From sequence record PQ438393.1: a stretch of DNA of 64,000 nucleotides; one strand, given 5' to 3'. Made by a program: the position numbers and the translations under genes. The DNA is from Escherichia phage vB_Eco_J-01. This document shows, piece by piece, positions 16,582 to 16,990 of the stretch (position 1 is the first letter of the stretch; every line of letters begins with the position of its first letter). Below the pieces are notes generated by a model. That model searched no databases, was not told the origin of the DNA, and worked only from the letters and a program-made list of their open reading frames with translations.

Positions 16582-16990
16582 TGTTTATCTCCTTAGTTGA
16601 GTTAGGACTTTATGTTCTCTACTCTACATACAGATGGATCTAAAGTCAATAGATATTTATTATTTAATTAATAATAAAATTAATAAAGAATCTATTGTTA
16701 GTATAGAGTATGTATGTTAGTATTAGAAACATAACATAGTGCTATATGTAGACTACTCAGTCGTTTGTTAGATCATGTATCACAAGATTAGATAACACCC
16801 CCTCGCTGCGCTCGGCGTTTTTCGGGGGTTAGGGTAGCATACTTTTTTGCGTTTGTCAACACCTTTTTAGATTATTTTTAAGTACAACCTAAACCTCCTA
16901 AAAACGATTGTAACGAGTTTTACTGTGAGGTAAGGTGATTGCATATCTTAGAGGCTATTAGCTCGTTACAGAGCTATACAGGAGGGAATA

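Follow-up and report, generated by a model that had tools for sequence, protein, structure and literature searches.

The window analysed here is a stretch of 64,000 nucleotides from Escherichia phage vB_Eco_J-01 (PQ438393.1), a phi92-like E. coli phage (Justusliebigvirus). It contains a divergent junction, at which a leftward block of genes headed by prs (ribose-phosphate pyrophosphokinase) and a rightward block start back to back, and the question that this locus raises is what the DNA between the two blocks does. The first-pass annotation, made from the letters alone, placed about 400 bp between the two starts; the gap is exactly 409 bp long (the prs open reading frame (ORF) occupies 15688-16581 on the minus strand and the first plus-strand ORF starts at 16991). 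From its sequence, it is rather likely to be a cluster of three host sigma70 promoters, one of which, together with a conserved hairpin, makes up a cassette present in three copies. The gap is a genuine hub of predicted promoters, of an ordinary kind and in a known phage group, and its interest lies in this promoter and hairpin cassette, which is previously undescribed, and in a conserved layout in which two promoters face each other.

The starting point is a GC-rich element, which had been credited with the ability to form a long stem. The string CCCCCTCGCTGCGCTCGGCGTTTTTCGGGGG lies exactly at 16798-16828, and the GC content is 65% across 16800-16839. The 31-mer matches the window at a single place at up to 3 mismatches; the window holds no extra exact copy, and the diverged copies that exist elsewhere surfaced only in a profile search. 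The long stem is an overstatement: the predicted fold consists of a 6-bp outer and a 3-4-bp inner stem with large internal loops between them. The fold energy is -17.2 kcal/mol on the plus strand and -16.2 kcal/mol on the minus strand, with z scores against dinucleotide shuffles of -0.56 and -1.44, and folding energy was discarded as evidence for a GC hairpin, being no better than that of the shuffles on either strand. The nearest diverged relatives (Citrobacter phage Tr1 and Klebsiella phages) have lost the outer CCCCC/GGGGG arms as well as the T run, and the 5' arm of this stem lies upstream of the start predicted for the promoter described below. The above-chance property of the element is its conservation, not its folding energy. 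A block of about 45 nt across it is nearly invariant between lineages in which the flanks are about 70% identical or cannot be aligned; the block CCTCGCTnCGCTCGGC...TTAGGGTAGCATA is nearly invariant in Tr1 and in the Klebsiella phages, with diverged flanks. What was noted at first sight is a genuine and conserved element, in which covariation traces a small minus-sense hairpin and not a long plus-strand stem.

On the minus strand the element belongs to a cassette of about 65 nt, which reads TTGAC(A/T)-N14-TGC-TACCCTAA followed by a variable spacer and a CGAGC-loop-GCGAG hairpin. The cassette promoter is called P-dist, the conserved hairpin HP2, and a short palindrome in the variable spacer HP1 (coordinates in Table 1). 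Tr1 is the only distant DNA match to the whole gap, and a search with the Prs protein added three Klebsiella phages to the set of distant relatives. BLAST with a 67-nt Klebsiella cassette matched 146 records, several of them at two places. An nhmmer profile built from eight cassette copies and run on a complete genome reports exactly three copies (E = 3.5e-17, 3.9e-14 and 1.5e-8), the next match having an E value of 2.2; three per genome is the number in Justusliebigvirus. In every lineage the genes downstream of copies c1 (in the prs gap) and c2 are co-oriented with the cassette and lie at fixed distances from it. Copy c3 opposes its downstream gene in 9 of 10 c3 loci, i.e. in all of those with a downstream ORF called, and also in three annotated phages. 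It is followed by a conserved hairpin, HP3 (about 56471-56490, UUCCAUG/CAUGGAA), which shows compensatory changes in relatives, and the arrangement is repeated in Tr1, in Klebsiella phages and in metagenomic lineages. Tr1 holds all three copy types and the Klebsiella-type phages c1 and c3; the c2 of the latter group was seen in a related metagenomic genome (IMGVR_UViG_3300030441_000047). Phage phAPEC8 carries at least one copy (c2, the sole copy inspected there).

When IMG/VR and metagenomes were scanned with the cassette pattern, 51 distinct sequences were obtained, of which seven are chance matches or an element resembling a miniature inverted-repeat transposable element (MITE). Among the loci set aside, L013, L016, L019 and L020 are near-identical contigs; the match in L013 falls inside a long ORF that is followed by a coat-sized ORF, was read as similar to a single-stranded RNA phage, and all four are taken as chance matches. 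Eight further loci without promoter context (L015, L017, L018, L037, L046, L053, L058 and L069) were likewise treated as chance matches, as were L042 and L080, where the pattern falls in a MITE-like element with terminal inverted repeats. This element (L042, about 2290-2640) is about 330 nt long, has 16-nt terminal inverted repeats and two inverted GAGCGAAGCGA hairpins, and looks unrelated to the phage. No cassette match was found in 5,426 complete E. coli genomes, and mimicry of a host element was rejected. Rfam 15 returned chance-level matches only (GA-cis at 21.3 bits against a threshold of 34.7; eukaryotic microRNA and small nucleolar RNA models), and the motif strings retrieved only unrelated primers from the searchable literature. 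A putative 13-nt identity (TCGCTGCGCTCGG) to a ColE1/pBR322 region carries no weight here.

The promoter half of the cassette has sigma70 geometry. In 34 of the 44 family loci, TTGAC(A/T) precedes TACCCT at a spacing of 17 or 18 nt, a feature that lies outside the search pattern; in the nine c3-type loci the -35 hexamer is TTTACT. The extended -10 position is TGC in every cassette copy, and TGC-TACCCT satisfies TAnnnT with a preceding TGn (A2, T6 and TG are present). The bases downstream show a regularity that may reflect a start site and that the search pattern likewise did not contain: of 27 distinct spacers, 26 have a pyrimidine as base 6 after TACCCT, 25 have a purine as base 7, and 24 have a pyrimidine-purine step at base 7, compared with at most 9 at any other offset. 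Sites of the form TTGACA-N14-TGn-TAnnnT are plentiful in the intergenic gaps of this phage, so promoters for the host polymerase appear to be its normal style, a view that the rV5 paper also took of the wider group (PMC3606486). Other ways of reading the cassette as a promoter were rejected. On the plus strand, a -10 of TAGCAT would have CGGCGn 17 nt upstream, which is unlike any sigma70 -35; TATGCT as the -10 has a second base that varies between A and G and would be spaced 12 nt from the -35. The consensus sequences of sigma32, sigmaE and sigma28 do not fit in spacing or in hexamers.

The hairpin half is conserved both in sequence and in pairing. In our own reading, the HP2 core may comprise two G-C pairs, a tandem G·A and a closing C-G pair around a GNA or GNNA loop, the loop length being variable (AA, CA, ATA, AAT, GGA). 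Across 30 family sequences, 89% of the cells that flank the core are paired, a share that drops to 29-49% with slid partners. At pair 10-25 the sequences have C-G (n = 18), A-U (n = 7) or G-U (n = 1), and pair 8-27 is U-G (n = 13), U-A (n = 10) or C-G (n = 4). The covariation score is above that of all 500 shuffles; the test was run on the unfiltered set and then repeated without the chance matches L037, L042, L058 and L080. The flank energy of -7.09 kcal/mol is below that of all 200 shuffles (-5.71 +/- 0.31 kcal/mol). If the opposite strand folded, 23 G·U cells would become A·C mismatches; since the G·U cells occur on one strand only, the folded strand is the minus-sense one, which fits an RNA from P-dist, and HP2 would lie a median of 3 unpaired nt from the predicted 5' end of that RNA. 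Of the 27 distinct spacers between TACCCT and the HP2 core, 23 contain HP1 (shuffles 10.5 +/- 2.5, maximum 18); its arms differ widely in sequence, and it is absent from c1 and c3 of the window. The HP1 loop coincides with the predicted start, and HP1 can therefore not be an RNA hairpin of a P-dist-type transcript.

The two remaining predicted promoters flank the AT-rich runs that had also been noted at first sight. These runs are real, with a GC content of 7.5-10% in 16640-16699 compared with about 36% window-wide. The core of the AT block, TTATTTAATTAATA, is kept in Tr1, and AATTAAT also in the Klebsiella phages; in relatives the block is only about 29 bp long (12 c1 lineages compared). Its AT richness would follow from its placement between the -35 hexamers of two back-to-back promoters, the leftward P-prox and the rightward P(+), for both of which it would provide shared upstream (UP-like) DNA. 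The 12 c1 lineages were scanned for promoters with all positions numbered from the T of TACCCT, and sigma70-like promoters at fixed positions were found in 12 of 12 lineages for P-dist, in 11 for P(+) and in 8 for P-prox. The same-sense counterparts of P-prox have their -35 at +175 to +199; those of P(+), on the opposite strand, have their -35 at +139 to +145 and the end of their -10 at +110 to +117, the promoter being shifted in L065. P(+) is a candidate promoter of the rightward early block. It faces P-dist: in silico, a plus-strand promoter stands opposite P-dist in all 12 lineages, at the same relative position in 11 of them, and the two predicted starts (near 16730 on the plus and 16823 on the minus strand) are about 95 bp apart. 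The expectation of early promoters in both directions is borne out to the extent that promoter-like sites are predicted on both strands, at positions conserved in 12 lineages. The layout is another one, with the AT block as the 45-bp spacer of the back-to-back pair and the GC-rich element as part of a third, leftward promoter that faces the rightward one.

Some records carry peculiarities at the AT block. In phage inny a 12-nt tandem duplication (ATTTATTATTTA; window 16654-16665; L004 1574-1599) is annotated as 'repeat_region', and the same duplication occurs, judging from match length, in about 8 further records. A genome end or terminal repeat at the gap was considered and rejected, the 'repeat_region' of inny being a mere 12-nt tandem duplication. 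The linear record of ALITA (L005, PP359570.1) ends within the AT block (window about 16696) and that of JLBYU50 (OK272470.1) starts at the c3 gap (window about 56555). Because record starts vary widely among 55 genomes, these ends are read as arbitrary; they are probably points of linearisation or assembly breaks at AT-rich DNA.

Taken together, the promoter cluster would work as follows. P-prox would drive prs from close range and P(+) the rightward early genes, with the AT block as upstream DNA for the two, while P-dist, 95 bp further to the right, would fire leftward toward P(+), giving transcripts that overlap by about 95 nt. The GC-rich element would form the first 10-30 nt of the P-dist transcript and fold into a small, very stable hairpin (CGAGC-loop-GCGAG with flanking pairs), which, near the RNA 5' end, may stabilise or mark the transcript. 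From the geometry, the facing promoters may interfere with each other and so couple leftward to rightward expression. In most lineages the -35 of P-dist directly adjoins the ribosome-binding site of the rightward gene, whose mRNA must consequently cross the cassette. The three copies of the cassette lie ahead of prs, ahead of a small membrane-protein gene and, at 56.4 kb, in what would be an antisense unit.

Several observations weigh against this account. TACCCT agrees with the -10 consensus TATAAT at 3 of 6 positions only, and its invariance, together with the adjoining C and AA, exceeds what sigma70 requires. The window's own P-dist has C as base 7 past the hexamer and G as base 8. HP1, which lies across the predicted start in most spacers, does not follow from this account. 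The orientation of c3 against its neighbouring genes does not fit a promoter for downstream genes. HP2 starts at the predicted 5' end in 15 cases, compared with 13.5 +/- 2.9 with shuffled flanks, which is not significant; the idea that it begins exactly at the RNA 5' end was dropped for this reason, and its role as a 5' stabiliser is, for the same reason, only a plausible guess. In the metagenome set, TGCTACCCTA, CGAGCG and GCGAG are invariant because the search pattern demands them, so that independent support comes from the BLAST and nhmmer copies only, and the sequences are kin, hence the shuffle controls overstate significance. Literature searches found no transcriptome or start-site study of this phage group.

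The excess conservation could be accommodated if the cassette were mainly a protein-binding DNA site, in which a phage or host regulator reads TGCTACCCTAA and/or the AGCGA-AGCGA repeat and switches the three promoters together, for example as a temporal class on or off; such a site could coexist with a promoter. The 11-mer TGCTACCCTAA does not vary among the copies that BLAST found in lineages with differing spacers, which is more constraint than sigma70 alone would impose, the HP2 core doubles as a mirror and direct repeat (GAGCGAAGCGAG), and a 'potential transcription regulator', gp026, is annotated in phi92 two genes from c3. However, covariation of the HP2 flanks with G·U on one strand indicates a folded nucleic acid rather than a duplex site, the variable loop length would alter the spacing of the half-sites, and no candidate binding protein was identified; as the main function of the cassette, we consider such a site improbable. 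The orientation of c3 suggests, alternatively, that the cassettes are small non-coding RNA genes which share a 5' hairpin, c3 being antisense to the neighbouring minus-strand genes and c1 to the rightward leader. Copy c3 does lie in a conserved intergenic gap of its own, opposing its downstream gene, and both of its consensus hairpins, HP2 and HP3, show compensatory changes; the P-dist transcript is predicted to be antisense to the first 95 nt or so of the P(+) transcript. No convincing intrinsic terminator follows any copy, however, the genes after c1 and c2 run in the cassette's direction at a constant spacing, and Rfam gave no match, so that as a description of all three copies this is rather unlikely. 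For c3 by itself, a small or antisense RNA is the simplest reading and makes it a candidate; a regulatory RNA, as suggested in the first-pass annotation, is possible, chiefly for this antisense copy at 56.4 kb. A further view, which we hold to be doubtful, would make the three cassettes a dedicated control system of the phi92/phAPEC8 subfamily: a promoter class marked by TGCTACCCTAA, a 5' tag in the form of a GA-bracketed hairpin that is read by a phage or host factor (for antitermination, protection or sequestration), one copy giving an antisense RNA, one facing the main early promoter as a timing switch, and HP1 acting on single-stranded DNA inside the initiating polymerase.

Two other alternatives are very unlikely. 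In the first, the GC-rich element would act on the plus strand, terminating or attenuating transcription within the long leader ahead of the rightward gene: transcripts from P(+) must cross it, a terminator scan flags CGCTG-CGCT-CGGCG followed by TTTTT (5-bp stem) on the plus strand, the plus-strand hairpin has the energy given above, and the element can also pair with 16887-16906 (repeat I3). A plus-strand terminator is, however, contradicted by the data, in that neither Tr1, with AAACTTC, nor the Klebsiella phages, with GAACTTC, have the T run or the outer stem, the 23 G·U cells turn into A·C mismatches on this strand, c2 and c3 have no plus-sense transcript to regulate, and the folding energy is matched by shuffles. 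Equally remote is a transcription-primed replication origin of the T7 primary or T4 oriF type, with P-dist followed by an AT-rich unwinding region, in which case the three cassettes would be three origins. The cumulative GC-skew minimum lies at 16-17 kb, the very AT-rich 45-bp block is 130-170 nt downstream of P-dist, phi92 annotates a T7-like DNA polymerase, a T7 gp4-type helicase domain is described in rV5 gp230 (PMC3606486), and there are several cassette copies per genome. The skew turns, however, where the gene strand turns, here as well as at 52 kb, a conclusion also reached by the rV5 authors (PMC3606486), and it is inseparable from gene orientation. No iterons or repeated boxes were found in the gap, the AT spacer shrinks in relatives and is accounted for by its place between two -35 hexamers, and c2 has no AT-rich tract downstream. 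The origin suggested in the first-pass annotation is thus left without specific support. The promoter cluster with its three-copy cassette is the reading that we compare with known systems below.

Face-to-face promoters with overlapping transcripts and transcriptional interference are known from coliphage 186 (pR/pL) and from P2 (Pe/Pc), where they serve the choice between lysis and lysogeny and have repressor genes on either side. P(+) and P-dist resemble them in facing each other with transcripts predicted to overlap; unlike them, they belong to a phage group described as lytic, and no repressor gene was recognised beside the junction, the flanking genes of the gap being prs and genes of proteins of unknown function. 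Leaders of the ompA type, in which a 5'-terminal stem-loop stabilises an E. coli mRNA, are similar in that a stable hairpin lies within a few nt of the predicted RNA 5' end, but the loop and core of HP2 are conserved in sequence, which a pure stabiliser does not need. Promoter-proximal recruitment signals include the RfaH ops element (GGCGGTAGCGTG, on the non-template strand), lambda nut boxB and HK022 put; the ops core GCGGTAGCG folds on the non-template strand into a small hairpin similar to HP2. Like these signals, the cassette would place a short conserved element early in long operons, within the first tens of nucleotides, and the ATA-loop variant GCGATAGCG resembles GCGGTAGCG. The best variant, however, agrees at 9 of 12 positions, and the G and T read by RfaH are replaced or deleted in most copies (GCGAAGCG). 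Identity with ops fails on sequence, most copies being GCGAAGCG without the T, and no N-, Q- or RfaH-like phage gene was identified.

The rV5-like phages offer a close published parallel: host-type TTGACA/TATAAT promoters, many with an extended -10, were predicted at a divergent junction, and skew changes were found to track transcription orientation (Kropinski et al. 2013, PMC3606486). As in the window, the genome is organised in large opposed transcription blocks with host-type promoters at the divergent junction, but that paper describes consensus matches only, without a facing pair, a TACCCT class or a conserved leader hairpin (PMC3606486). The PeSL cassettes of T4-like phages, which combine a sigma70-like early promoter with a stem-loop and are repeated (Arbiol 2010, PMC2839356; Comeau 2014, PMC4122927), are likewise composite motifs conserved within a phage group. 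In PeSL the stem-loop lies upstream of the promoter and is a terminator, whereas here the hairpin lies downstream and is predicted to be transcribed (PMC4122927); PeSL occurs in many copies in hyperplastic regions and is tied to gene shuffling, whereas here there are three copies at fixed orthologous sites, one of them antisense. Hairpin position and copy number both exclude the cassette from PeSL. Finally, the sigmaS-selective extended -10 consensus KCTAYRCTTAA, as quoted in PMC5650638 from Weber 2005, has 8-9 of its 11 positions in common with GCTACCCTAA(A), among them the C at -13 and the C at -8. In terms of the quoted consensus, -9 is C and not a purine and -6 is A and not T, and the strong -35 and the TG are typical of sigma70; this resemblance is a lead only.

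Table 1. Features of the prs gap and of the cassette copies (window coordinates).
Feature	Position	Strand	Description	Basis
prs, heads the leftward block	15688..16581	-	ribose-phosphate pyrophosphokinase	ORF; Pfam Pribosyltran + Pribosyl_synth; prs / Phi92_gp107 in relatives
Shine-Dalgarno of prs	16589..16594	-	AAGGAG	sequence; phi92 ribosome-binding site annotated at homologous place
P-prox (predicted)	16621..16649	-	sigma70-like, TTGACT-17-TAGAGT; predicted start near 16614	promoter scan
AT block	16650..16694		45 bp, 3 G+C, partly palindromic (TTATTTAATTAATAA); between -35 hexamers of P-prox and P(+)	GC profile in 40-nt windows
P(+) (predicted)	16695..16723	+	extended -10, TTGTTA-N14-TGT-TAGTAT; -35 at 16695-16700, 17 nt, TAGTAT ending 16723; predicted start near 16729-16731	read from sequence
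Conserved GATC block	16749..16774		TAGACTACTCAGTCGTTTGTTAGATC (GTnTGTTAGATC)	kept in Tr1, partly in Klebsiella phages
GC-rich element (CCCCC...GGGGG)	16798..16828		GC-rich element of the first-pass annotation	sequence, GC profile, motif search
Cassette copy c1	16797..16861	-	P-dist + leader hairpin	nhmmer E 3.9e-14; alignments
HP2 core	16802..16814	-	CGAGC-GCA-GCGAG	invariant in BLAST-found copies from diverged lineages; flanking pairs covary
P-dist core (predicted)	16831..16859	-	-35 TTGACA 16859-16854; 17-nt spacer ending TGC; -10 TACCCT 16836-16831; predicted start 16823-16824	sequence + family statistics
Leader hairpin of first rightward gene (predicted)	16894..16985	+	anti-Shine-Dalgarno CCUCCU 16894-16899 / Shine-Dalgarno AGGAGG 16980-16985; GUAACGAG / CUCGUUAC	inverted repeat I2, fold
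First rightward gene	16991..17359	+	Phi92_gp106A homologue, 122 aa, PHROG 14390 of unknown function	ORF; phi92 annotation
Cassette copy c2	outside window		within one-directional small-gene block, 66-79 nt before ~88-aa membrane-protein gene	BLAST/profile copies
Cassette copy c3	56407..56464	+	in 207-nt gap 56350-56556 between minus-strand genes	nhmmer E 1.5e-8

Apart from the promoters, the gap contains two further elements. The leader of the first rightward gene folds with an energy of -34 kcal/mol (z = -3.06; 1 of 200 shuffles is equally good), and the Shine-Dalgarno sequence of the gene is sequestered in the predicted hairpin. Two starts, each with its own ribosome-binding site, are annotated in phi92, namely gp106A (window 16991) and gp106B (window 17039). 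The conserved GATC block lies in the stretch that is predicted to be transcribed from both P(+) and P-dist. Repeats similar to AGATCTAACA are found in metagenomic c1 lineages, and in many c1 lineages a second copy is situated within the P(+) spacer, which gives the look of an operator pair.

The 801 bases around the gap are 95-99% identical to 55 phage records, nearly all of them Justusliebigvirus. In phi92 the homologous gap is flanked by gp107 (prs) and gp106A, and its annotation is confined to ribosome-binding sites. The leftward block on the minus strand comprises prs, nadV and 16 tRNA genes; comparison with Pfam and PHROG assigned no known function to the first rightward genes. The tRNA region (window 10391-13136, minus strand, 3' of nadV/prs) has its 16 tRNAs amid many TTGACA-N14-TGn-TAnnnT promoter-like sites (e.g. 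12926, 12786, 13469 and 11486). A 151-nt 'hypothetical tRNA' is annotated within the nadV coding sequence of phi92 (49736-49886; L001 975-1125), and ARAGORN finds no tRNA at the homologous position of the window. A gene of about 70 aa (MPNMSYCMFENTSNDMQD..., PHROG 26791, function unknown) lies between P-prox and prs in most relatives (L007 2263-2475; most metagenomic c1 loci) and has no counterpart in the phi92-like phages. Four records named as Campylobacter phages, namely A145 (flagged UNVERIFIED), A110a, A150 and C3 (MG065645.1, L025-L027, and three sister records), are 97-98% identical to E. coli phi92-like phages and are probably mislabelled or contaminants.

Small ORFs have been annotated over the GC-rich element or in the prs gap of several relatives (Eryne CDS0265, VEcB vecB_103 and gp150, and two in Tr1), and we regard them as gene-caller artefacts because the window has no ORF of at least 30 aa there and they are not conserved as ORFs. 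The spurious annotations are located at L002 1881-2045, L003 1858-1989, L021 2432-2557, and L006 2544-2633 and 2777-2872.

The phi92-like and phAPEC8-like phages are widely isolated and are studied for therapy, and literature searches gave no transcription study of them. The conserved map of three promoters, with one facing pair, provides precise coordinates for where the NAD-salvage/tRNA block and the early block would be started. The cassette is a compact, portable candidate part that combines a strong -35, an extended -10 and a leader hairpin. If it is merely a strong promoter with a stabilising hairpin, the result would be an ordinary one, and the annotation would still be improved, spurious small ORFs having been placed over the cassette. 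The strict conservation, the fixed copy number and the single antisense copy suggest that the cassettes may be co-regulated.

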